Source: an archaeon
GTDB lineage: Archaea; Nanobdellota; Nanobdellia; Woesearchaeales; UBA9642
Direction of reading: 5' to 3'
Length of the DNA stretch: 64,000 bases
NCBI GenBank assembly: GCA_020057295.1
Contig: JAGVGF010000005.1
Span: 1-64,000 of the forward strand
The notes under the pieces are model-generated. The model did no database searches. It was not told where the DNA came from and saw only the letters and a list, made by a program, of their open reading frames with translations. Position 1 is the stretch's first letter, and each line of letters opens with the position of its first letter. Below, piece after piece: positions 10,012-32,338 of the stretch. The position numbers were made by a program, and so were the translations under genes.

Positions 10012-11019
10012 TTATACTGCTGCTTCTAATCTTTCTTCTTTGACGAAGAATGCACATTCACCATCAGCTATGTTTGGTGCGTCTACTAATTTTGCAACTC
10101 TTGAACCTTTCTTACCCTTTCGTAAGTAGATTCTAAATGTTGAGTTGTGTCCTACGATGTTTCCGCCGATTGCTTCTGTTGGATCTCCAAAGAATGTGTC
10201 TGGCTTTGCCATAACTTGATTTGTAACATATACTGTTAAATTGTACATGTCTGCAAGTTTCGCAAGCACGTGCATGTGTTTGTTTAATTTTTGTTGCCTA
10301 TCAGCAAGAGTTCCTCTCCCAACAAATTCTGCTCTAAAATGTGCTGTTAATGAGTCAACAATTATCAGTTTTACATTAAGACCATTTTTTATTAGCTCTT
10401 CTACTTTTTCTGCGAGTAACATTTGATGGTCCGAATTGTACGCGCGTGCAACTTTAATATTTCTTAATACTTGTTCAGGATCCATTCCTAAACCTTTTGC
10501 AAATTGTACGATTCTTTCAGGTCTAAAAGTGCTTTCAGTGTCAATGTATACTACTGCAGCTGTAGGATCTTGTTTTTGAAGACTTACAGATAATAAATGT
10601 CCTATCTGAGTTTTTCCAGAACCGTATTGTCCAAAACATTCTGTTATCGCTCTAGTTTCAAATCCGCCTTCTAGTAATGCGTCGAATGGTTCACAAAATG
10701 TGGATATTTTATGTATTGTGGATCTCTTTTGCATTGCCTCTTCGCCTGACATGAATCCCATATCCATTGATGCTCTTGATGCCTGAATAATTTTTCTCGC
10801 AACAATCTCACTTACGCCCGATGCTTCAACAATTTCTCCAATTGTAGCTACAGCTATTGCAAGCAGCGTATCAAATCCTGCTAATGATAATTTCTCTGCA
10901 GTTGCAGCTCCTACACCAGGAAGACTTGTTACTGATGTCTCGTTTGATTTTTGAACGTTTTTCAAATCTATATTTACATCGTTGTCTAATTCGTTTTCTT
11001 CTACTCTTCTTCTTGCCAT
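10012..11019 (-). CDS. radA: DNA repair and recombination protein RadA
   Basis: N-terminal HhH (LPGVGAATAEKL), Walker A GQYGSGKTQ, YIDTESTFRPER, GRGTLADRQQKL. Confidence 0.97.
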   Translation of the reverse strand: MARRRVEENELDNDVNIDLKNVQKSNETSVTSLPGVGAATAEKLSLAGFDTLLAIAVATIGEIVEASGVSEIVARKIIQASRASMDMGFMSGEEAMQKRSTIHKISTFCEPFDALLEGGFETRAITECFGQYGSGKTQIGHLLSVSLQKQDPTAAVVYIDTESTFRPERIVQFAKGLGMDPEQVLRNIKVARAYNSDHQMLLAEKVEELIKNGLNVKLIIVDSLTAHFRAEFVGRGTLADRQQKLNKHMHVLAKLADMYNLTVYVTNQVMAKPDTFFGDPTEAIGGNIVGHNSTFRIYLRKGKKGSRVAKLVDAPNIADGECAFFVKEERLEAAV

Positions 11020-13770: not shown

Positions 13771-14499
13771 TTATTTTTCTAATAACATTTTCTTTGTTTG
13801 TGTATAAGATGTTCCATCGTTAAGTCTTACTCTTGCAACTAAATTATATATTCCAGAACTCAAGCCATTACCGTTAAACACTCCGTTATATGTTCCTGGT
13901 TTTAATTGTGAGTTAAATAATGTTGAAACTTCTCTTCCAAGAATATCATAAACTCTTACATCAACATTCGCATTTTCTATAACATCAAAAGATATATTTG
14001 TTTCTGGATTGAATGGATTCGGATAATTCTGATTTAATTTAAAATATGAAGGATTTCCAAGATTTGCAGCATTATTAACTCCTGTTGTTTTTCCTGTGAT
14101 TATGCTATCTATAGTCTTATACGTTACCGGTACATCTATTGTGCTGTCTGGAGCAAATCCTATCGTAAACATCTTTTCTTTAGGAATATTATCAACTATA
14201 GATTTTATTGAATCATTATGTGCTGTTTTAGGCATTAAGTAGAACGTGTTAAAAACCATTGAAGGATTATTTTGTTTTTTACCGAATGCTGACGGGACAA
14301 AGTTTGCCGTATCGTTTCCACTACCTAAATTTATACGATAATCTATACCATCACCATATTTTCCCTTCATAACGTAACCGTGATTCTTGAATTCTTGTCC
14401 TAATTGTTGGAATGCTTGATCTAGCTTAGACTGCGCATTAACTATGTATGATGATGCTAATAGTAATCCTGCAATTATTGTGTTTCGTATTATTTTCAT
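13771..14499 (-). CDS. Secreted protein with T9SS type A sorting-domain-like (FlgD-Ig) C-terminus
   Basis: Signal peptide ending VNA|Q; C-terminus LNQNYPNPFNPETNISF..VYDILGREV..LSSGIY..TKKMLLEK. Confidence 0.85.
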   Translation of the reverse strand: MKIIRNTIIAGLLLASSYIVNAQSKLDQAFQQLGQEFKNHGYVMKGKYGDGIDYRINLGSGNDTANFVPSAFGKKQNNPSMVFNTFYLMPKTAHNDSIKSIVDNIPKEKMFTIGFAPDSTIDVPVTYKTIDSIITGKTTGVNNAANLGNPSYFKLNQNYPNPFNPETNISFDVIENANVDVRVYDILGREVSTLFNSQLKPGTYNGVFNGNGLSSGIYNLVARVRLNDGTSYTQTKKMLLEK

Positions 14500-14507
14500 T
14501 TTTTTAC

Positions 14508-17500
14508 CTATTGAACAATTTCTCCTACAAGTTTTCCACTCAATACATTAGATACAACAGTTATCGTAAATTGTCTAATATTATCTGCTTTATTAGTCTC
14601 TATTAACACATTATCCGAATCTATAGTTATATTTCCATTAAATGTTCCTGCACTTGTATAATTGAAGTATTCCCATCCATCTATAGGATAATCGAATACT
14701 GGAACTGTTCGTGTTATTGTTTGCTGACCAGTATTTATTGTATATTTGAAATTATTTATATTTTGATTTTCATTTTTCATGATCACAAAGTTCACTCCAA
14801 CGGTCTGTCCTATTTTTGGAGTGGTATTATCTACATAGACACTATCGACGTATGCATTAAATGTTATTATTGGAGGAGTAATTGCTGCTGTTACAGGAAT
14901 TGTTGATTTTACTGTTGTTGAGCCATCTGTTACCGAGATATTAAAGTCGTAATTTCCTGTCAAATTAGTCTGTTTTGCAATGAATGTAATATTTTGAACT
15001 AATGTTTGACCGCCATTAATAATTGTTGGACTTGCAAAGATATAATTCCATGCAGAATTTCCTTCAATTGTTGTGGTAAATGTTCTTGGTAAACAATAAA
15101 TATTATCGTTGTTTGTGATACTTGCTGTTGCAGTTCCGTTAGTCACATCAGCTAATGTATCTATGAAGTTGAACGGTCCTCCATTAATTGTTATTGTTGG
15201 ATTATTACGTATGCAAGGATCAATAAATGATATACTATGAATTCCTGTTACAGATAGTCCTGAATCATTGTTCTTAGCCGTAATACTGAATGTAGTATTT
15301 ATGTATGAAACTGTTGTTACATTGTAAGCTAATCTTTTTTTAACACCTGCACTTATTGTTAAATTGTTAACATCTACAGGAACATAATTTCCAGTACTCA
15401 TATTATAAACTAATAATTGATACGACATAGGATTTGTTGTTGTAATATTAAATATTGCATCAGTACAATATGAATTATCATTATTTGTGACATTGAATTG
15501 CACTACCGTATTATTGTCTATTCCTTGTCTTAATAAGATATCGCTTGGAACAGCGATTGTAGGAGTATTTCTTACGCATGGATCGATTACATTGATGCTA
15601 ATATCTCTTAGCGTACTCATAGCACCATTAAAATTGGTGAAATTAACATTAATATTATAGGTTCCAGGAATTGCATTTACTGGAGTCACATTGTAGAACA
15701 ATATAAATTCTGAGTTGGTATTTCTTCGTATATATTTATTATTATACCATTTTTCAAGTCTATATCCTACAATTGTCCTATTATAAGGCTGTCCTGTTGT
15801 TTGATTGATAAGAGTTACATTATATAAGTAAGATGTGTTGTAATATACCTCTGTAATCCATCCTTCAGGGAATGTGACATTGTATAAAAATACACTATCC
15901 TGACAACTTGAACTGTCATTATTTCTAACTGTTATTGGCATCATAAATGACTCTCCCTGATTGATAGCATAATTTAATACTCCTTTGAATATAGGAGTTC
16001 TTGTTGTACAAGAATCGTTTGAAAATGACATATTAGAATATTTAGAAAGTATTAATCTTTGATAAGTTTGGGCAAATTCTTGAACAGTTACATTCATTGA
16101 TGGAGCAAAAGAATAAGGTTTGCCTCCAAACCATGATCTAGGTATTGTTGCATACACAATAATATTTTTTGAACTTGTTTCATTTAATGTTATTGTTTTA
16201 TCGAAGAATTGAACTAATTCTCCAGAAGGTAATTTCTCAAAGTATTCTAAAGTCCAACTTTCTGGATAATTTGGTTCTAAAATTATATGTGACTCTTTAC
16301 AACCAGCATAAGCTTTACCTTGGAACGTATATCCGAAATTAAATAGATTAGCATAAGGTCTGTGTATTGACATTGTAACTCTTGAAGTATCGGCAGAAAT
16401 TTTTATTGGCTCTCTAAAATAACATGATGGTTGCGTTAAATTGACTTCGAATGTCGCACTACCTTCTGTTGAATTATCAACAGATAAAGTTTTTATTCTT
16501 ATACCCATAGGTGCATCAATGTAAGTTTTGTCAACATTCAGCGTTACATTCATCGTATCATAATATGATGCAGATGTTCCTCCAATAGAGTTTGGAGTCA
16601 TGTCAAGTAAATATGTTCTTGCAAAATTTTCGCTTGTTGAAGAAAATTCATTCATCACATTAACAAATATACCGTTTAAGTTGTCTTTAGTATTTGGCCA
16701 TCCGCCCGTGCTATAATTAGTTTTTGAATCAAAACCTATTGGTCTTCTTATTTCTATATACATGTAAGGTGTTGAAGTGTTTGGATCTGAGCCTATGGGA
16801 TATATTTTTGCTGCATGTATTCCGTTGTTAGATTCCAAAGGATTTATTGTATAAGTTCCATTAGTAACTACAGATTGTATTGTGCTTTGATTTATCCATC
16901 CGTTTAATTCTTTATAATATGCATTTGTATGAAGTGTGAATGAAGTTGTTCCCATAATATCATAATAATTACCGTAATTGTAACTAGCGTACGGATCATT
17001 GAGATTATTTTCATTACATGCTTGTCCATACATTACAATGCCTGGTTCACATCTCATAATTCCTGCATGATTTGCTCCAAATCCGTGTCCTCCAAGTTCG
17101 TGTGAAACAAGATAATCAAGATTTGTCCAATTAAACGGTTGTGTTCCCCATCCTGAAGGGTTTTTGTATGTTGATTGATTGTTAATGTTAATACTTCCAA
17201 CCCAGGAAACAGAAGTGTTCCAGATTTCATTACCGACTTTATTTTGTGAAATACCCACATATGAAGTTCCACCAGTAAAATAATGATGATTAACTAAGAT
17301 TAATATTCTATCATATTGAGTCATATTAATACTTAAAGAATCAGAATATGTTTTAATATCATCTAATGTTGGAGGATATATGCTAAATGATCCTGAAGAA
17401 ACAGAATTATGAGGTATTTGATACCATCCATATACGTCAGCAGTTATGTTGCCTACTTTTCCATATGATTGTTCCTGCATAAATTTTGCAAATGGACCAT

Positions 17501-18401
17501 TCTCTAATCTTTCTTTAACATATGTAGAAGTCATATTTTCAGGATTTGGATTTTGAGAATCAGTAAAACTAACCATGAATACAACAATCTTTTGTGGACC
17601 TATAGTTAGTACAGGACCATTTTCTAATATCTTTACATCTGAAGTTTTTACTGCAATATCATTGTCGATTATCAGACCACTAACAGTGATTTTAGATCCT
17701 GAACGCAATTCAGGGTTTAATTGTAATAAATTGTCTGTAGGATTTATATTATACATCTTGTTATTTGATAATATATTATAAGTATAAATAGAATTTCCTG
17801 CTTTATCCTCACTTACGAGAATATTAAGATATCCTTCTAGAACTATTGGTTGTTCTATATTTTCAGATAAATCTGCATAAGATTCATCAATTGCTACAAC
17901 AGATTTATCGAAGAATTTTTCAACATTGTTTTCCAGTAATTTTTTCATTAAAGGTTTACGTTCAACAATCACTGATTCTGTTACAGTATTATCTATAATC
18001 TGTTCATTGATTTGATCTATGCGATCTGTGTTAGTTATCTGTACGGGCACAGGACTTAATGAAACTGGAGGAGTATATTGCTGACTGTTAGTATTACTTC
18101 CAGATCCTCCGCCGCTAGAACCGCCACCAGAATTTCCTGAGTTTTTTCCATTATTAGTGGTTGTTATCTTTAGAGATACTTGATTAGAATTTTCTTTGTT
18201 TGAATCGTTATTATGTAAATTATTTGTTAATGTGTTATTTGTAGATATATTAGAATCTAATGATTGAATAGAGTCTGTTCTAGGTGTGCCTGGATCACGA
18301 TTAACATTTCCGTTAAAATCATCATTTATAGTGCATCCTACTAGAAATAAAGAGAATAATACTAGTACTACCAATGTATTAAATTTACTTCCCCCATACA
18401 T
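14508..18401 (-). CDS. Large secreted/lipoprotein zinc metalloprotease (M6/M11-like metzincin) with repeated Ig-like modules and CARDB-like C-terminus
   Basis: LFLVGC lipobox-like signal; HELGGHGFGANH Zn motif; YGNYYDIMG Met-turn; repeated CxRxxP...NNDxxxC modules; IDSDNVLIETNKADN CARDB-like end. Confidence 0.75.
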   Translation of the reverse strand: MYGGSKFNTLVVLVLFSLFLVGCTINDDFNGNVNRDPGTPRTDSIQSLDSNISTNNTLTNNLHNNDSNKENSNQVSLKITTTNNGKNSGNSGGGSSGGGSGSNTNSQQYTPPVSLSPVPVQITNTDRIDQINEQIIDNTVTESVIVERKPLMKKLLENNVEKFFDKSVVAIDESYADLSENIEQPIVLEGYLNILVSEDKAGNSIYTYNILSNNKMYNINPTDNLLQLNPELRSGSKITVSGLIIDNDIAVKTSDVKILENGPVLTIGPQKIVVFMVSFTDSQNPNPENMTSTYVKERLENGPFAKFMQEQSYGKVGNITADVYGWYQIPHNSVSSGSFSIYPPTLDDIKTYSDSLSINMTQYDRILILVNHHYFTGGTSYVGISQNKVGNEIWNTSVSWVGSININNQSTYKNPSGWGTQPFNWTNLDYLVSHELGGHGFGANHAGIMRCEPGIVMYGQACNENNLNDPYASYNYGNYYDIMGTTSFTLHTNAYYKELNGWINQSTIQSVVTNGTYTINPLESNNGIHAAKIYPIGSDPNTSTPYMYIEIRRPIGFDSKTNYSTGGWPNTKDNLNGIFVNVMNEFSSTSENFARTYLLDMTPNSIGGTSASYYDTMNVTLNVDKTYIDAPMGIRIKTLSVDNSTEGSATFEVNLTQPSCYFREPIKISADTSRVTMSIHRPYANLFNFGYTFQGKAYAGCKESHIILEPNYPESWTLEYFEKLPSGELVQFFDKTITLNETSSKNIIVYATIPRSWFGGKPYSFAPSMNVTVQEFAQTYQRLILSKYSNMSFSNDSCTTRTPIFKGVLNYAINQGESFMMPITVRNNDSSSCQDSVFLYNVTFPEGWITEVYYNTSYLYNVTLINQTTGQPYNRTIVGYRLEKWYNNKYIRRNTNSEFILFYNVTPVNAIPGTYNINVNFTNFNGAMSTLRDISINVIDPCVRNTPTIAVPSDILLRQGIDNNTVVQFNVTNNDNSYCTDAIFNITTTNPMSYQLLVYNMSTGNYVPVDVNNLTISAGVKKRLAYNVTTVSYINTTFSITAKNNDSGLSVTGIHSISFIDPCIRNNPTITINGGPFNFIDTLADVTNGTATASITNNDNIYCLPRTFTTTIEGNSAWNYIFASPTIINGGQTLVQNITFIAKQTNLTGNYDFNISVTDGSTTVKSTIPVTAAITPPIITFNAYVDSVYVDNTTPKIGQTVGVNFVIMKNENQNINNFKYTINTGQQTITRTVPVFDYPIDGWEYFNYTSAGTFNGNITIDSDNVLIETNKADNIRQFTITVVSNVLSGKLVGEIVQ

Positions 18402-18504: not shown

Positions 18505-18548
18505 CTTTAAAAGTAGCTCTATATATAGTATCAAAAAAGAGGGTGTGT

Positions 18549-19973
18549 ATGAAGATTAATCCTGAGCATTATTTTGTTCTTAACGGCGGCAGAATTATTA
18601 AGAATCTTGATGAATTAATCGAAGTTCTAAAGACTATTGACAAAAAGACGTTCGAATATCATGTTAATGATAATAAAAATGATTTTGTTAATTGGATACA
18701 ATATGTTTTTAAGAGCAATAAATTGGCTGCAAGTATAGAAAATTTAAGGTATAAAGATATAAAAGCCATTATAGGATTTATACGTAAACATTTGGATGAA
18801 TTAAAGATTCTAGTGGTTAATGGAGGAAGTTCCTCGTTAAAATTTCAATTAATAGATTTAACTTCGAAGAACGTTCTTATTAAAGGAATGATAGATGCTA
18901 TAAATCTTGATAGAGGCAATATATCTTTAATATTTAATGGTGAAACAATCAGCAGAAACGTTGTTGTAAAGAATCATGATGAAGCAGTAATGTTAATGAT
19001 TAGAAGTTTAATAGATAATAACATAATTAGCGATGTCTCGGAAATAAAAGCTCTAGGACATAGAGTAGTACATGGTGGAGAAACATACACTGAGCCAGTA
19101 ATAATTGATAATATAGTTATAGAAAGATTAAAAGAACTATCTGTACTTGCGCCGTTACACAATCCACCAAACATTTCATGTATTCAAGCATGTCAGAAAA
19201 TTTTTGAGTGTCCACATGTTGCTGTATTTGATACAGCGTTTCATTCAACAATACCTGTTGAAAAATTCTTATACGGTCTACCATACGAATATTATGAAAA
19301 ACACAAGATTAGAAAATATGGTTTTCATGGCTCAAGCCATAAATATATTAGTAAATTAATCTCTGAATATTATAAAATAAAAGGTAAAAAAAACTCTAAA
19401 GTAATAATTTGTCATCTAGGAAACGGATGCAGTATTACAGCAGTTAATAATGGTAAATCATTAAATACAACGATGGGATTCACACCATTAGATGGGCTAA
19501 TAATGGGTACAAGATGCGGACATTTAGATCCTGCAATATCAATACACTTAGGAAATACACTAAATCTTAATTATGAACAACTAGGAAAGATATTAAATAA
19601 ACAATCAGGACTTTTAGGAATTAGCGGATTTAGCGATATGAGAGATTTGCGTAAGAATAAGAACGATCCTAAAGCAAAACTTGCAATGAAAATGTTCGCA
19701 GACCGCGTAACGCATTATATAGGAGCATACATCGCTGAATTAAATGGTGTTGATGGAATAGTTTTTACAGCAGGCATTGGAGAAAATGCAGCATATATAA
19801 GAAAGCTTATACTAGATAACTTTAAATTTTTAGGATTAAAGATAGATAATAGAAGAAATGATAAGAACGAATTTATCATAACTACTAAGGATTCTAAAAT
19901 AACAGTATTTGTTATGCAAACAAACGAAGAATTACAAATTGCAACAGATACAAGAAAAGCTCTTAAATTATAA
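18549..19973 (+). CDS. ackA: Acetate kinase with extra N-terminal ~80 aa domain (DUF5752-like)
   Basis: ILVVNGGSSSLKF, GHRVVHGG, APLHNP, VFDTAFH, YGFHGSSH, HLGNG, MGFTPLDGL and TNEE motifs. Confidence 0.95.
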   Translation: MKINPEHYFVLNGGRIIKNLDELIEVLKTIDKKTFEYHVNDNKNDFVNWIQYVFKSNKLAASIENLRYKDIKAIIGFIRKHLDELKILVVNGGSSSLKFQLIDLTSKNVLIKGMIDAINLDRGNISLIFNGETISRNVVVKNHDEAVMLMIRSLIDNNIISDVSEIKALGHRVVHGGETYTEPVIIDNIVIERLKELSVLAPLHNPPNISCIQACQKIFECPHVAVFDTAFHSTIPVEKFLYGLPYEYYEKHKIRKYGFHGSSHKYISKLISEYYKIKGKKNSKVIICHLGNGCSITAVNNGKSLNTTMGFTPLDGLIMGTRCGHLDPAISIHLGNTLNLNYEQLGKILNKQSGLLGISGFSDMRDLRKNKNDPKAKLAMKMFADRVTHYIGAYIAELNGVDGIVFTAGIGENAAYIRKLILDNFKFLGLKIDNRRNDKNEFIITTKDSKITVFVMQTNEELQIATDTRKALKL

Positions 19974-20003: not shown

Positions 20004-20429
20004 TTATTCTCCTAGTCCTGCATAAGATAGTACTTTGTCTTTAAGGTTCTTTTCATCTAAAAACTTTTCAGCCTTAAATATGGCATAATCTATAGCCTCA
20101 TCATAAGGAGCAGAACCTTCCCAAGATTTTCTAATCAAATCCTTATACTTGCTATCTAAGTTTTTCAGAACAACACACGTTAAATATAAATCGTCAAGAT
20201 AACCATATGCGCCGTATACTTCTTCAGGCACAACATCTGACGGACTTACAAAATATGCTAATGCACTATTAATTAGCATTCTAGAATTTTTATCAACTTC
20301 ATCCTTGTCTAATAAAGCACAGAGCAACCCAAAAAAATCAGGTAAATACAACACAGCCTTATCAACATCCTCACCCTTATCTTGTAATTCTTGTATCGAC
20401 TCCTTCAAATAATCATAATAACTCTTCAT
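20004..20429 (-). CDS. DUF1232 (YkvA) family protein
   Basis: ALAYFVSPSDVVPE..GYLDD motif. Confidence 0.85.
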   Translation of the reverse strand: MKSYYDYLKESIQELQDKGEDVDKAVLYLPDFFGLLCALLDKDEVDKNSRMLINSALAYFVSPSDVVPEEVYGAYGYLDDLYLTCVVLKNLDSKYKDLIRKSWEGSAPYDEAIDYAIFKAEKFLDEKNLKDKVLSYAGLGE

Positions 20430-20496
20430 AAGAGAAATATTGGGAGACAAGTTTATAAATTTTAAGAAATATTCATTATAAGGTCAGAATATAAAT

Positions 20497-20925
20497 CTAT
20501 TCAGACAAACCACAATATATCAATAATTTTTCTTTAAGATTTTTTTCTTCTAAGAATTTTTCAGAACTAAATTTACAAAAATCTAGAACTTTATCGAATT
20601 CTTCAGTGTTGTCCCATAACGAAGATATTAAATCATAATATTTTACTCGAAGATTCGACAATATTATACAAGATACATACATATCGTCAATATATCCATA
20701 TGCTCCATAAACTTCCTCGGGAACCATATCATTCGGAATTACAAGATATCCTAAAGCTATATTTGCATGCACCCTTGATTCTTTATCAACTAATTCATTA
20801 TCCAAAAGATCACACAACAATTGGACTAAATCCGGAAAATGCAACAGACTTCTGTCAAAATCTTCCCCCGAATTTCTTAAAATATCTATTTCTTCTCTAA
20901 GATAATCTATATATGTTCTAACCAT
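20497..20925 (-). CDS. DUF1232 (YkvA) family protein, tandem paralogue
   Basis: ALGYLVIPNDMVPE..GYIDD motif; clearly similar to the neighbour. Confidence 0.85.
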   Translation of the reverse strand: MVRTYIDYLREEIDILRNSGEDFDRSLLHFPDLVQLLCDLLDNELVDKESRVHANIALGYLVIPNDMVPEEVYGAYGYIDDMYVSCIILSNLRVKYYDLISSLWDNTEEFDKVLDFCKFSSEKFLEEKNLKEKLLIYCGLSE

Positions 20926-20996: not shown

Positions 20997-22049
20997 ATGA
21001 TTATTAAAAAATCTCCTGAAGACTTTATTGTAGAAGAATTGCCTGTAAAAGAATGGGATGATGCAGGACATTATGCAGTATTTAAACTTATTAAAACCAA
21101 TTTGAACACTGAACGTGCTATAGAGATTATTTCTGGAAAATTTCACGTTTCTCGATCTATAATCAAATATGCTGGATCTAAAGATAGACATGCCATAACA
21201 ACACAATATATTAGTATACCTTCAAAAAATATTGTCGTTAGTAAAATTTGTATGGATGATGAGGATCTTAAACTCTCACATGTAGGATATACTGATGAAC
21301 CATTGAGTTTAGGAAGTTTAAAAGGTAATAGATTCGTAATTACGGCGAGAGAATTGACTCCTAAAGAATCTAGTAACATAAAATCCAAAAATATACGTGA
21401 CACTAACAATGATGAAACGCATATTATACCAAACTATTTTGATGATCAAAGATTTTCCATCAATAATTACAACATAGGACTGAACATTTTGAAGCGTAAT
21501 TATAAAAAAGCGGTAGAGTTTATGTGTGAATCAAGTAGCATTTACAAGGACGCAACAGATATCTATATACTTTCAAACCCTAACGATTACATAGGCGCAT
21601 TAAAACATATCCCTAAAAAGACACTGCTAATGTTAATACATTCAGTACAATCATATATATATAATGAAGCATTAACTAAAATTTTAATAGAATACGCTGA
21701 AAGAAATAGTATTGAATATTATATTGTAGAATATAGTATGGGACGATTAATATTCTATAGAGATATTTCAAACTATGAAAAATGTGGTATTGAGAATTTA
21801 GAATTATTAGGTTTTGACACTAAAACAGTAAATCATTATGTAAATAATATAATTAAAGAATTAGGATTAACACAACGTGATTTTATAGTGAGAGCTATTC
21901 CTGATTTGAGTGTTGAAGGAACAACAAGAGAATGTTTTGTAAATGTAGAAAATCTAGAAATCATATCGATGAATGAAAGAACAATATTAGAGTTCGAACT
22001 TCCAAAAGGATCATATGCAACAATGGTCTTGAAAGCGTTGTTTAATTAA
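20997..22049 (+). CDS. truD: tRNA pseudouridine(13) synthase TruD
   Basis: IKKSPEDFIVEE, YAGSKDRHAITTQ, GNRFVI, PNYFDDQRF and FELPKGSYATM motifs. Confidence 0.93.
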   Translation: MIIKKSPEDFIVEELPVKEWDDAGHYAVFKLIKTNLNTERAIEIISGKFHVSRSIIKYAGSKDRHAITTQYISIPSKNIVVSKICMDDEDLKLSHVGYTDEPLSLGSLKGNRFVITARELTPKESSNIKSKNIRDTNNDETHIIPNYFDDQRFSINNYNIGLNILKRNYKKAVEFMCESSSIYKDATDIYILSNPNDYIGALKHIPKKTLLMLIHSVQSYIYNEALTKILIEYAERNSIEYYIVEYSMGRLIFYRDISNYEKCGIENLELLGFDTKTVNHYVNNIIKELGLTQRDFIVRAIPDLSVEGTTRECFVNVENLEIISMNERTILEFELPKGSYATMVLKALFN

Positions 22050-22069
22050 TTATTAGACCACAAGAAGGG

Positions 22070-24049
22070 TTAGTTAGAATTCGTTGTATATCTGTTCGTG
22101 TGTCTTTCATCCTCTATAAATACATTAATAACGGCATCAATATTTTTTATTTCTTGTATTAATTTATGTATATCTAAAACAGGCGATTTTCTAATATCCA
22201 TAGTTATTATTACTCTCCCATCTTTTCCTAACCTAGTATTTACTGATTCTACATTATGTTTTTCATTGGCAATATAATTTAGTAATTCAGCCAGTATTCC
22301 TACTCTATCTTTAACATCTACTCTCAAAGGGTATATTTGACTTTCAACATGCTGTAATAATAGTTTTACTTCTTTAGTCATATCGCATGTGTAAACATTT
22401 GGACAATCTACCCTATGCACTACAATTTTACCATCTTTAGTCTTAAATGCTCTCGTTTTTTCTGATTGTCTTGGTGTACAACATTTTGGTATCTTCAAAT
22501 CATACTTTTTACCTTCTACAGTTATCTCTTCTGGGAAGTCTGAATCATCATCTAATAATTCTACAGGATCCCTCTTTTTCTGTTTAGTGTCTACATCAAT
22601 ATTTAGTGCAGCTCTTATTTTTGTTCTAGTATGCGCAGATTTTGCAAATGATAGCCATGATCTTGATGGTGCAGCATTCTTCTGTGTTAATATATCTACA
22701 ACATCTCCTGAAGACAGAGTATAATCTAAAGTAACTACAACTCCATTAACTTTTGCTTGTTTACAATGATTACCTATATCAGTATGTACAGCATATGCAA
22801 AATCAACAGGTGTAGCCTCTTCTGGCAAAGCAATAGGATCACCGTTAGGTGTGAATACAAATATCTCTTTCTCAAAAAGATCTATCTTCAAATTTTCTAT
22901 GAATTCTTGCGCGTTAGCACTATAACGTTGCCAATCCATTATTTGTTTCATTAACGCAATATGTCTATCAAATTTCTTATCTTTATCATCTCCTTTATAT
23001 CTCCAGTGTGCCGCAACACCTTCTTCAGCAGCCATATGCATATCTTTAGTTCTAATTTGTACTTCTAATATACTTCCGTGACTAACAAACACACCTGTAT
23101 GTAATGATTGATAACCATTAGCTTTAGGAACTGCAACATAATCTTTTAATCTTCCAGGCATTGGTTTCCATAAACTATGTATTATCCCTAAAACTTTGTA
23201 GCAATCATCCACACTATCTACTATTATTCTTATAGCCATTAAATCATATATTTCATCAAATTGTTTATCTTCGCTAATAATTTTTTTATAAATGCTATAG
23301 AAATGTTTTGCTCGTCCTGATATTTGTGCTTTTATATCATGTTTAATTAATGAATCATTTACTAATTCCATTATCTTATCGACTTCTCCTTCACGCTGTT
23401 CACGAGTCTTAGCAACCTTATCTTTTAGTTCTACATATTGAGTATTTTCCAAGAATCTGAATGATAAATCTTCTAATTCACCCTTAATATTATTCATTCC
23501 TAGTTTGTGTGCTATAGGTGCGTATATGGTCATTGTTTCCGTGGCGACAATCTTTCTCATATCTTCTGGAAGATATTTTAGTGTACGCATACTGGCTAAT
23601 CTTTCAACAATTTTAATAATTATTACTCTAATATCTTTAGAACTTGCTAGCATTATCTTACGTGTGTTTTCTGCTCTACGTTCTTCTTCTGCTTCCGGAT
23701 TAAAATTCTTATTAACATTTCGTAACCTAGATAATGCTTCTATTAATGTCAATACTTCCTTATCAAACTCTTTTTCTATAACTTCAGGCTTAATATTTGA
23801 TTCTTCTAGAATAGCATGTAACAACCCTACTACCAGAGTGTGAGATCCTACTTTAAGATCTGCTAGCATCATAGCTACATCATATGAGTATGTGAAAAAA
23901 TCTTCATCCGATAATCGTTTTTTGTCATGCAAATGTTGATATGAAAATCTTACAGCTTTTTCTATTAACGGAATGTCGGCGTTAGGATTATATAATCTAA
24001 CCTTATTCACTAATTCTTCAATTTTTTGTTGTAAATCTATAGTTGTCAT
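22070..24049 (-). CDS. relA: Long RelA/SpoT homologue: (p)ppGpp synthetase with degenerate HD domain, TGS, ZFD and ACT domains
   Basis: GRAKHFYSIYKK, IYDLMAIRII, KDYVAVPKANGYQSLHT, EVQIRT; TGS FVFTPNG..DFAYAVHT; KCC..HRVDC; ACT DRVGIL. Confidence 0.92.
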   Translation of the reverse strand: MTTIDLQQKIEELVNKVRLYNPNADIPLIEKAVRFSYQHLHDKKRLSDEDFFTYSYDVAMMLADLKVGSHTLVVGLLHAILEESNIKPEVIEKEFDKEVLTLIEALSRLRNVNKNFNPEAEEERRAENTRKIMLASSKDIRVIIIKIVERLASMRTLKYLPEDMRKIVATETMTIYAPIAHKLGMNNIKGELEDLSFRFLENTQYVELKDKVAKTREQREGEVDKIMELVNDSLIKHDIKAQISGRAKHFYSIYKKIISEDKQFDEIYDLMAIRIIVDSVDDCYKVLGIIHSLWKPMPGRLKDYVAVPKANGYQSLHTGVFVSHGSILEVQIRTKDMHMAAEEGVAAHWRYKGDDKDKKFDRHIALMKQIMDWQRYSANAQEFIENLKIDLFEKEIFVFTPNGDPIALPEEATPVDFAYAVHTDIGNHCKQAKVNGVVVTLDYTLSSGDVVDILTQKNAAPSRSWLSFAKSAHTRTKIRAALNIDVDTKQKKRDPVELLDDDSDFPEEITVEGKKYDLKIPKCCTPRQSEKTRAFKTKDGKIVVHRVDCPNVYTCDMTKEVKLLLQHVESQIYPLRVDVKDRVGILAELLNYIANEKHNVESVNTRLGKDGRVIITMDIRKSPVLDIHKLIQEIKNIDAVINVFIEDERHTNRYTTNSN

Positions 24050-24091
24050 GTTTAGTGTATTATGTCCTATAATACCACTAGGAGTGGTGGT

Positions 24092-24730
24092 TTACTTATA
24101 AATATTCTTTAGAATCTTTACTATTTCGTTATTTACTAATTTTATTGGTCTTGCACCGTTTATAGTGTATAAGATTTTTTGTTTCTTATATTCTTTCTTT
24201 AACGGTTCTGTCTGTGTATGATATATCTTTAATCTGCGTTTAATTTCAAGAGGTTTATCATCCTCTCTATGTATTAATTTTGCATGATCAATATCACAAT
24301 ATCTTGAGATTTTTGGTTTTAACCATATAGTATTATAATTATGCCCACACTTCGGACAAACTCTTCTGCTAGCAATCCTTCTTACGGATTCTTTTTCAGA
24401 TAAAATTATTTCTATAGTTGCACCTATTTTAAAATTATTTTTTAGAAATATCCATTGTTCCATGCTTCTGGGATAACCATCGAATATTATGCCGTTCTTG
24501 CATTCTTTGCGTTTAGATATCTTTAAAGAAATGTTGTTTGTTATTTTGCTTGGAACTAAATCTCCTCTATTCACTATCTTCGAGATTTTCTTGCCTAAAG
24601 GTGTGCCTTTCTTTATTTCTTTACGTAATTCATCACCCATAGATAAATGATAGAGTTTATATTTTTCTACAAGCAAGTCTGCTTGCGTTCCCTTTCCAGA
24701 TCCTTGCGGACCAAATAAAATTATATTCAT
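24092..24730 (-). CDS. adk: Adenylate kinase (bacterial-type, zinc-lid)
   Basis: GPQGSGKGTQ, LSMGDELR, DGYPR, lid RRVCPKC..CDID, REDD. Confidence 0.93.
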   Translation of the reverse strand: MNIILFGPQGSGKGTQADLLVEKYKLYHLSMGDELRKEIKKGTPLGKKISKIVNRGDLVPSKITNNISLKISKRKECKNGIIFDGYPRSMEQWIFLKNNFKIGATIEIILSEKESVRRIASRRVCPKCGHNYNTIWLKPKISRYCDIDHAKLIHREDDKPLEIKRRLKIYHTQTEPLKKEYKKQKILYTINGARPIKLVNNEIVKILKNIYK

Positions 24731-24776
24731 AAAAACTCACCAATTAATGTTGTAAATAGCGTATAAAACAGTTGAT

Positions 24777-25232
24777 TTACCCGAAATATCTCTGATTATC
24801 TTTCTTTATATCTCTTTTCCATGATCCTTGCATCTTATCTGCTATTGCAAGCATCTGTGGTTTCACAGATCGTATTTCTTCATGAACTAATTGTATTGTT
24901 GATAAGGTGTTTTTTTCTTCATTTATTATTTCTGCCTTTAATACTTCTCTGTAAACAATAATTACGCTCTTATATAAATCAAATAATTTAATTTTATCCT
25001 TATCATCAAATACCGAGCATTCATGTAATGCATGAAATTCTTCTGGCTGTAATATCTGTTGTATCATCTTTAAGTATAGTTCTAATGTTTCTGACATTTT
25101 ACGTAAAATACTGTTTATTGTAAGATGTTCTTCTACTAACTCGTAATCTTTTTTTAGAGTATTAAAATTTTTTATCTTAGTAGTTATTGAGGCATCTGTA
25201 TTCTTTGTTTTCTTGTCTTTTATAGGTTTCAT
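24777..25232 (-). CDS. Hypothetical helical protein
   Basis: 151 aa ORF co-oriented upstream of adk, TATA-like TTTAAAAA upstream. Confidence 0.7.
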   Translation of the reverse strand: MKPIKDKKTKNTDASITTKIKNFNTLKKDYELVEEHLTINSILRKMSETLELYLKMIQQILQPEEFHALHECSVFDDKDKIKLFDLYKSVIIVYREVLKAEIINEEKNTLSTIQLVHEEIRSVKPQMLAIADKMQGSWKRDIKKDNQRYFG

Positions 25233-25356
25233 GACATATTCATTCTACGAGTATTTTTAAAGTTGACGAAAGATAGATATACAATATATAGACTAATTTG
25301 GACATAACATTTTTAAACTTATTTCTACAAACACAGTATAATTATAGCAGGTGATT

Positions 25357-31324: not shown

Positions 31325-32338
31325 CTATGCTAAACGTTTAATCTTATATCTATTAGAAGTAACAATTTCAGCTATAATTCTATTGTTTGTAGTATAATCT
31401 AATCCTGCTTCTTGTCTTGGCGATAATAAGTCTGCCAGTACCATAATATTTCTTATATATCCTACTGTTTCAGGAATGTTTGGTAAACCTTGATTGTTTC
31501 TTGTAGTTCCTAAGCCAGAATTATATGATGCTATTCCTCTTAGAATATTATGCCACCATTTTCCACCAAAATGCCTTTCGCACTCTCTACATAATAATGC
31601 TAGATACTTTGCAGATTTTTCTATCGCTAATTCAGGGTTTAATCTATCATCAACAATCGAATTCTTATGAACTCTAAATGCTTGCTCAAACTCTAATAAT
31701 AGTTTTCCGCGTTTAGAAATAACAGCATCATATTCTAATTTGTAACGTTCAGCATCCTTGAAATTGTTTCTCTTAAAATTACGCATGGCAGCATTAAATA
31801 ATCTTGAAGAATTTTTATTAACTTGTGCTAATGTTGTTTCATACATGAATAGTTCTGGATGTGTCCCTTTAGTATAAACATGCATCCCCATATCTGAAGC
31901 TGTTGGACGCATAAATTGTGCAATACCCATCGCTGGAGCCGGAGAAATTGCGTAAGGATTGAATGAAGATTCTTGTATTAATAATGCAAAGTGATATTCT
32001 GGAGGAACATCAAATATTGCCCTAAAGTCGCTATTATGTTTTAATATTAATTCTAAGTAAGGTCTAGATTTAGGATGTTTTCGTTCTGTTATTTGTCCGA
32101 CTATTTCACAATATCGTGTACGATTATAATTATCTGACAAAGGTTTTTCGTAAGATGTATCAATTATATCTCCGCCGACATCTTTGACAGCATCATCAAT
32201 TGAAGAAACAGTACTCGACATAACATTGCCTTGGCTTTTACCTGATTGACTGGATATTCTAAACGACATATACCCTACGCCTAATGCTGGTACGACCGTT
32301 TTTAAGAATGTTTTTCTATCCATTGTATTGCCAAACAT
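31325..32338 (-). CDS. Lytic transglycosylase (SLT/GH23) with Tat-like signal
   Basis: IQESSFNPYAIS, AMGIAQFM, NPELAIEKSAKYL, ASYNSG and PETVGYI motifs; N-terminal DRKTFLK. Confidence 0.88.
   Translation of the reverse strand: MFGNTMDRKTFLKTVVPALGVGYMSFRISSQSGKSQGNVMSSTVSSIDDAVKDVGGDIIDTSYEKPLSDNYNRTRYCEIVGQITERKHPKSRPYLELILKHNSDFRAIFDVPPEYHFALLIQESSFNPYAISPAPAMGIAQFMRPTASDMGMHVYTKGTHPELFMYETTLAQVNKNSSRLFNAAMRNFKRNNFKDAERYKLEYDAVISKRGKLLLEFEQAFRVHKNSIVDDRLNPELAIEKSAKYLALLCRECERHFGGKWWHNILRGIASYNSGLGTTRNNQGLPNIPETVGYIRNIMVLADLLSPRQEAGLDYTTNNRIIAEIVTSNRYKIKRLA

Follow-up and report, generated by a model that had tools for sequence, protein, structure and literature searches.

Can an archaeon carry a complete stringent factor that makes an alarmone and has lost its own means of removing it? 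The question is raised by a gene in the 64,000-nucleotide stretch at the start of contig JAGVGF010000005.1 (assembly GCA_020057295.1; hereafter, the window), which comes from a Woesearchaeota archaeon and encodes a long RelA/SpoT homologue (RSH). We put the probability at roughly 0.7 that its product is a long RSH of RelA-like, synthetase-only type, which would most likely make guanosine tetra- and pentaphosphate, (p)ppGpp. The preliminary description of this DNA had proposed a synthetase-only archaeal RSH of independent origin; the archaeal host, the dead hydrolase, the conserved synthetase and the independent loss all stood up, and the accompanying claims of an undescribed alarmone system and of an operon with adk, the adenylate kinase gene, proved overstated. 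The open reading frame (ORF) runs uninterrupted from an ATG start and is organized as follows.

22070 to 24049, minus strand: long RSH gene, 659 residues, with pseudo-hydrolase, synthetase, TGS, short helical remnant, zinc finger and ACT
23495 to 23956, minus strand: pseudo-hydrolase HD_4, residues 32 to 185 (Pfam E value 1.2e-34 and alignment with 1vj7)
22988 to 23317, minus strand: synthetase RelA_SpoT, residues 245 to 354 (Pfam 5e-43; D269, RLKDY, YQSLHT and E329 conserved)
22685 to 22864, minus strand: TGS, residues 396 to 455 (Pfam 3.3e-21; invariant H422)
22496 to 22684, minus strand: remnant of the alpha-helical domain, residues 456 to 518 (two short helices, then an acidic low-confidence linker)
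22121 to 22495, minus strand: zinc finger (C523, C524, H545, C549; invariant columns) and ACT (residues 574 to 643; ACT_4, 3.3e-11), the second stretch aligned to 8fr8

The order of HD, synthetase, TGS, zinc finger and ACT/RRM is that of a long RSH, and the protein scores 591.5 bits against the NCBIfam model TIGR00691 (spoT_relA), for which the cut-off is 499.2. It falls below the equivalog cut-offs of both SpoT (NF008303, 477 versus 947) and RelA (NF008124, 389.7 versus 728). The closest solved structures are those of B. subtilis Rel (6yxa; phmmer E value 1.5e-131), mycobacterial Rel (8fr8) and S. aureus Rel. An AlphaFold2 model computed from 57 archaeal-type sequences reached a mean predicted local distance difference test score (pLDDT) of 81.8, and its best Foldseek matches were RelA on the 70S ribosome (5iqr, the top match), B. 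subtilis Rel (6yxa, 43% identical in that alignment) and full-length SpoT. Of the domains described earlier, Pfam recovered HD_4, RelA_SpoT, TGS and ACT_4, and the zinc finger is recognized by its invariant Cys/His ligands. The ORF is intact; the alpha-helical domain between TGS and zinc finger is short, at about 40 residues.

We read the catalytic motifs residue by residue against alignments with B. subtilis Rel (6yxa) and streptococcal Rel (RelSeq, 1vj7). All three hydrolase motifs are degenerate exactly as first noted: EPYIIHP has become EDFFTYS, HDVVED has become HAILEE (H78-A79), and KLADRLHN has become KIVERLAS. In the 1vj7 alignment, the RelSeq residues that we take to bind metal or to carry out hydrolysis face the following positions of the query.

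Y54 of the query at RelSeq H53
H78 of the query at RelSeq H77
A79 of the query at RelSeq D78
E82 of the query at RelSeq E81
E83 of the query at RelSeq D82
E149 of the query at RelSeq D144
A152 of the query at RelSeq H147
S153 of the query at RelSeq N148

The metal ligands and ED pair of a hydrolase-competent Rel or SpoT are therefore incomplete, the query having Y54, H78, A79 and E149 among the former and E82 and E83 in place of the latter. The synthetase site keeps D269 (RelSeq D264) within DLMAIRI, E329 (RelSeq E323) within EVQIRT, and the RLKDY and YQSLHT motifs, so that at the sequence level both the catalytic and the acceptor-binding motifs are present, as the preliminary description had it. 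These comparisons support the assignment of a dead hydrolase site and a conserved synthetase site. In the sensor region, H422 of TGS and the four zinc-finger ligands (C523, C524, H545 and C549), also pointed out at the outset, are invariant across the 57 archaeal-type sequences. The remark that an RXKD motif is typical of bifunctional Rel rather than of E. coli RelA holds as well, since Atkinson 2011 gives RXKD as the Rel/SpoT form and EXDD as the RelA form; the query reads RLKD, and the EXDD of RelA is absent.

The same pattern recurs among relatives. We searched 61 genomes of the same order, the query's own genome (G000) included, and found a full-length homologue in 29 (E values of at most 1.6e-118): 12 of the 13 genomes of the host genus, none of the 6 from other genera of its family and 17 of the 42 from other families. 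In one of them (G007) the gene is split across two contig ends. The dead motif pattern is present in 5 of the 29 fetched orthologues (G000, G001, G005, G007 and G009), all from the host genus; another 5 from that genus (G004, G006, G008, G011 and G012) have HD and an ED region one residue shorter, one (G046) is otherwise degenerate, and the remaining 18 keep HD...E[D/E/Q] together with KLxD[RK]LHN. A wider alignment held the query and 116 of its 120 best database homologues, the other 4, under 590 residues, having been dropped. Here the HD aspartate is lost in all 26 of the closest homologues (67 to 98% identical) and the HD histidine in 23 of them, with the H and N of RLHN replaced throughout the group; of the other aligned homologues, 27 have the one-residue-shorter ED region and 63 a canonical HD...E[DE]. 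The synthetase motifs of the dead group are near-invariant, with single substitutions in YQSLHT (P0003, P0004 and P0009) and in EVQIRT (P0019 and P0022). Mean pairwise identity within the dead group is 79.5% for HD, 86.5% for the synthetase and 88.3% for TGS, the best conserved domain. Identity of HD to the canonical forms is 45.7% for the dead group versus 55.0% for the ED-shortened group, a pattern that fits relaxation followed by renewed constraint on what would now be a pseudo-domain. The ED-shortened sister group (L006-L011; P0028-P0033 etc.) keeps HD and RLHN, reads HDxLE- and has EIQIRD in place of EVQIRT; it may represent an intermediate stage of hydrolase decay.

Where this loss took place can be read from a midpoint-rooted FastTree phylogeny (LG+gamma) of 191 sequences, made up of the query, 46 hand-thinned sequences out of 120 named-database matches and 144 of 150 representative-library matches of at least 600 residues. 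The dead forms make up a clade of 9 (support 1.0), which is sister to an ED-shortened clade of 10 (joint support 0.886). Both branch from within HD-intact forms, the enclosing nodes comprising 25 and 29 sequences (support 1.0 each), and all of these fall within a clade of 52 sequences with a short linker between TGS and zinc finger (support 0.962). Because the dead clade is nested in archaeal long RSHs with a canonical HD, the loss is recent, in situ and independent of that in proteobacterial RelA. Synteny agrees: in the host genus, dead, ED-shortened and HD-intact orthologues alike occupy one neighbourhood, in which a 151-residue hypothetical protein (hyp151), adk and RSH lie next to the pseudouridine synthase TruD, and this sharing argues for loss in place. 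Together, nesting and synteny bear out the claim of an origin separate from proteobacterial RelA. The node joining all short-linker clades has a support of only 0.534, and this midpoint-rooted tree does not resolve the bacterial sister group or donor. As judged from sequence and comparison, the protein descends from a bifunctional Rel-type enzyme widespread in Woesearchaeales, and the hydrolase site decayed in place within a single lineage of the host genus. Constraint persisted on the HD fold, the catalytic residues of the synthetase, its RXKD motif, the histidine of TGS, the zinc finger and ACT. Other short-linker clades also carry degenerate HD motifs: one holds P0184 (Candidatus Woesearchaeota), with G061-G063 reading HGxxx-, and another holds P0258 (Candidatus Diapherotrites). 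Hydrolase decay therefore seems to be recurrent in DPANN archaea: besides the query clade and G046, it would have affected a second clade of Woesearchaeales and one that includes a Diapherotrites member. The sequences with degenerate HD motifs in the second Woesearchaeal clade and in the clade with the Diapherotrites member are L042-L044, L115, L118 and L119, and P0250, P0251, P0256 and P0258.

How might such an enzyme work? It would transfer pyrophosphate from ATP to GTP or GDP, yielding (p)ppGpp. Activation would pass through the C-terminal sensor domains, and the most probable trigger, as in bacteria, would be deacylated tRNA on the ribosome, here an archaeal one that the enzyme would read with a far shorter helical linker. 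The pseudo-hydrolase domain would have a structural or allosteric function, like that of E. coli RelA, and the alarmone would be cleared by a non-RSH enzyme (Nudix or generic HD) or by dilution.

The step from ribosome to synthetase is where the strongest alternative applies, namely that the synthetase is active and yet not driven by the ribosome, being set instead by small-molecule binding to ACT, by oligomerization or by partners. It draws its force from the helical region: from TGS to the zinc finger, all archaeal-type long RSHs examined have about 40 residues versus about 100 to 125 in bacterial ones, and the full alpha-helical domain of a long RSH is absent across the whole archaeal-type clade. 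In the region from query position 480 to 520, 60 residues or fewer are present in 73 of the tree's 191 sequences, among them every one of the 52 in the query's clade; another 110 have 90 or more, and 8 are intermediate. In the alignment to 8fr8, query residues 480 to 518 face chain residues 545 to 661, and the AlphaFold2 model has two short helices (465-468 and 472-481) followed by a linker with a pLDDT below 50 at 487-501. Moreover, the ribosome to be read is archaeal, not bacterial. Nevertheless, H422 and the zinc-finger ligands, which we take from the bacterial literature to sense tRNA and the ribosome, are invariant, and TGS shows the highest identity of the three domains compared, which fits a retained sensing role. 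Control without the ribosome is therefore possible, if rather doubtful, and we retain a ribosome-activated synthetase as the preferred interpretation. The passages of the literature examined make no mention of the short helical region of this clade.

A synthetase of this kind raises the question of what removes its product. In a six-frame family search, the query's own genome gave one RelA_SpoT match and one HD_4 match, both belonging to this gene, with no second RSH and no small alarmone hydrolase; Ppx-GppA had no match in this 100% complete genome either. The search for SAH/Mesh1-type small alarmone hydrolases and GppA that had been suggested earlier thus came back empty, and in each of four related dead-form genomes (89 to 95% complete) the only HD_4 match is the long RSH itself. 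A paralogous partner, as SpoT is for RelA, was rejected on the single RelA_SpoT match in the query's genome. Elsewhere, G061, G063, G064 and G065 have one RelA_SpoT match each, and G062 also has a weak second one. The query's genome further contains 7 Nudix and 4 generic HD matches, and 6 of these 11 proteins were profiled as queries across the 13 genomes of the genus as candidates for a compensating hydrolase. An HD protein of 217 residues occurs in 5 of the 13 (the two genomes with HD intact plus 3 of the 5 with the dead form), one of 209 residues in 6, mostly as paralogue-level matches, and one of 195 residues in 3. Two Nudix proteins of 147 and 155 residues occur in 6 genomes each, in a distribution that does not follow the dead form, and a third, of 141 residues, in all 13, including the one (G003) without an RSH. 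As none of the six profiled proteins tracks the dead-HD genomes, we name no remover. A separate observation concerns six genomes without a full-length long RSH match (G013, G016, G023, G052, G055 and G060; G052 is 100% complete), which carry ORFs of 186 to 204 residues that match the HD region only and resemble small alarmone hydrolases.

Several points weigh against a synthetase-only alarmone enzyme. One is the lack of a tracking hydrolase among the six profiled candidates; another is the report that bacteria do not tolerate a synthetase without a hydrolase (Atkinson 2011), a rule by which a hydrolase-free system would need a separate remover. The same paper also states that archaeal and eukaryotic RSHs break this rule and that a Nudix enzyme degrades ppGpp in Thermus. 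Moreover, the query retains the first histidine of the HD pair (H78) and has an aspartate-to-glutamate change at the RelSeq D144 position, and the short helical region means that ribosome docking in the bacterial manner is not assured. Finally, (p)ppGpp has reportedly never been seen in archaea.

This last point, together with the missing hydrolase partner, would also suit a catalytically silent pseudoenzyme kept as a regulator that binds the ribosome or tRNA. We consider this improbable given that D269, RXKD, YQSLHT and E329 are conserved in the query and near-invariant in the dead group, where the synthetase is more similar between members than HD is. An active synthetase could also make another product, (p)ppApp or pGpp instead of (p)ppGpp. 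Some RSH synthetases do make ppApp, but the acceptor-side motifs PKANGYQSLHT and RLKDY are nearly identical to their counterparts in B. subtilis Rel and streptococcal Rel, and we regard another nucleotide as very improbable. Slimmer still are the chances that the enzyme remains bifunctional and hydrolyzes by means of non-canonical residues. The retained H78, the glutamate at the RelSeq D144 position and the conserved HD fold could be cited in favor, but the losses of the HD aspartate (26 of 26) and histidine (23 of 26) among the closest homologues, and of the H and N of RLHN throughout the group, speak against hydrolysis. A synthetase-only (p)ppGpp enzyme thus remains our preferred interpretation.

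The contig also documents its host. A Rad51/RadA gene lies at 10012-11019 and an operon of ribosomal proteins at 33.5-46.3 kb (among them L19e, L32e, S4e, L5e/L18 and an archaeal/eukaryotic-type L24/L26), so that the RSH gene has archaeal markers on either side. The G+C content along the window is even (0.26-0.36), the genome (1.20 Mb in 6 contigs) has 100% completeness and 0.46% contamination, and the named relatives of the RSH protein are metagenome-assembled genomes of Candidatus Woesearchaeota. Although RSHs are typically bacterial and one close homologue (P0024, 72% identical) carries the source label Alphaproteobacteria, a bacterial contaminant or mis-binned contig is excluded for practical purposes by the archaeal genes on the contig, the even composition, the low genome contamination and the orthologues in 29 of the 61 genomes, and the archaeal host of the preliminary description stands. 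The homologue in question (P0024, labelled Alphaproteobacteria bacterium) itself has a dead motif, HTVIDE, and is probably a mis-binned archaeal contig.

The immediate neighbors of the RSH gene are the following.

24777 to 25232, minus strand: hyp151, 151 residues, first of a same-strand trio (hyp151, adk, RSH); no Pfam family; kept upstream of adk in the genus
24092 to 24730, minus strand: adenylate kinase (adk), bacterial-type with lid domain (Pfam ADK and ADK_lid; TIGR01351 above cut-off), 42 bp upstream of RSH
20997 to 22049, plus strand: TruD-family pseudouridine synthase (Pfam TruD), convergent with RSH; a conserved neighbor in the genus

Co-transcription of adk and RSH is plausible. Their arrangement is kept in 9 loci of 9 same-genus genomes and on the G007 contig that carries the N-terminal part (L024); G002 (L012) lacks it, as do all 7 loci of other families that have 1.5-kb flanks. 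For these counts, L023, seemingly the same record as the G012 locus, was counted once. The linkage is confined to the genus, a range too restricted to support a functional connection, so that the “operon with adk” of the preliminary description shrinks to a genus-level arrangement, and adk was rejected as a functional partner of RSH. The 42-bp spacer between the two genes contains a 6-bp hairpin and a TATA-like string, both uninformative at 30% GC. For hyp151, which has no Pfam family, the Atlas gave only weak leads (score 0.88) to hypothetical proteins of DPANN archaea. No tRNA and no Rfam family was found in the window, and a listing of sequencing read runs for positions 21900-25300 gave no RNA run and one DNA run at 0.18 of words.

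Further observations concern the surrounding DNA. Archaeal ribosomal-protein operons usually continue with secY and adk; here the operon ends at L15 (33514-33972), with no SecY-sized ORF or adk beyond it on that strand, and adk lies about 9 kb away, beside RSH. Just past the end of the operon, an ORF of 337 residues (31325-32338, minus strand) carries an SLT lytic transglycosylase domain (E value 2.1e-17) and could target bacterial cell walls. An acetate kinase gene (18543-19973, plus strand) has an N-terminal extension of about 87 residues with a weak DUF5752 match; acetate kinase, adk, phosphoglycerate kinase (PGK) and RSH together form a stretch rich in bacterial-type genes. Two tandem DUF1232 paralogues of 148 and 142 residues (20004-20925, minus strand) lie between acetate kinase and TruD. 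At 13771-18401 (minus strand), an ORF of 1,297 residues without a Pfam family is followed by one of 242 residues with a Por_Secre_tail, a sorting signal of type IX secretion that is unusual in an archaeon.

How does the protein compare with known systems? With B. subtilis Rel (6yxa) and RelSeq (1vj7) it shares the domain order, the RXKD-type motif, the synthetase residues, the TGS histidine, the zinc finger and ACT; it differs from them at Y54, A79, E83, E149, A152 and S153, in having about 75 residues fewer between TGS and zinc finger, and in its archaeal host. E. coli RelA (5iqr), the classical long RSH with a dead hydrolase, likewise combines an HD domain that is kept but inactive with an active-looking synthetase, and it was the top Foldseek match. 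However, the query is not its orthologue (389.7 versus 728 for NF008124), has RXKD rather than EXDD, lost its hydrolase independently and has no SpoT-like partner in its genome. Long RSHs with an intact HD from Woesearchaeales and further DPANN archaea (RelA/SpoT in PMC8407392) resemble the query in their short linker, their length of about 630 to 670 residues, their common clade (support 0.962) and, within the genus, their neighborhood, but they keep the HDxxED and KLADRLHN motifs, both of which the query clade has lost. Methanosarcina acetivorans offers another archaeal RSH synthetase in a genome without an RSH hydrolase, according to Atkinson 2011; that small alarmone synthetase is a single-domain protein, whereas the query is a full-length, sensor-bearing long RSH.

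Atkinson 2011, the standard survey of this family, states that archaea lack long RSHs, and a 2026 paper still places (p)ppGpp in Bacteria and plants. Even so, the alarmone system is not as undescribed as the preliminary description supposed: Li et al. 2021 (PMC8407392) report RelA/SpoT, with a predicted bacterial origin, from Diapherotrites (69.0%), Woesearchaeota (41.7%), Pacearchaeota (21.3%) and Nanoarchaeota (19.0%). Full-text searches found no paper describing hydrolase-dead archaeal long RSHs, although Tables S1/S2 of Jimmy et al. (10.1101/575399) and Fig. S34 of PMC8407392 may already list or classify them. The presence of RSH genes in DPANN archaea has thus been known since 2021, and the hydrolase-dead, lone variant appears to be unreported.

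A conserved, full-length stringent factor that looks synthetase-only, in an archaeal genome of 1.2 Mb, provides a concrete protein with which the use of alarmones by archaea can be tested. It could also serve to test whether a bacterial stringent factor that has lost nearly all of its helical domain can read an archaeal ribosome, and to ask how a cell copes with a synthetase in the absence of an RSH hydrolase, against the bacterial rule. Since one genus holds a natural series of HD-intact, ED-shortened and fully dead forms, a ready comparison set is at hand, of relevance to the stringent-response and DPANN fields alike. It is conceivable, though less likely than not, that some Woesearchaeota run a hydrolase-free alarmone circuit, in which a lone, sensor-bearing, synthetase-only long RSH, with its minimal helical linker, would detect starvation on the archaeal ribosome, while an unrelated enzyme would clear (p)ppGpp. 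Given that the hydrolase seems to have decayed several times in DPANN archaea, its loss may be favored in these episymbionts; one possible reason is that the host cell, too, responds to the alarmone or drains it.

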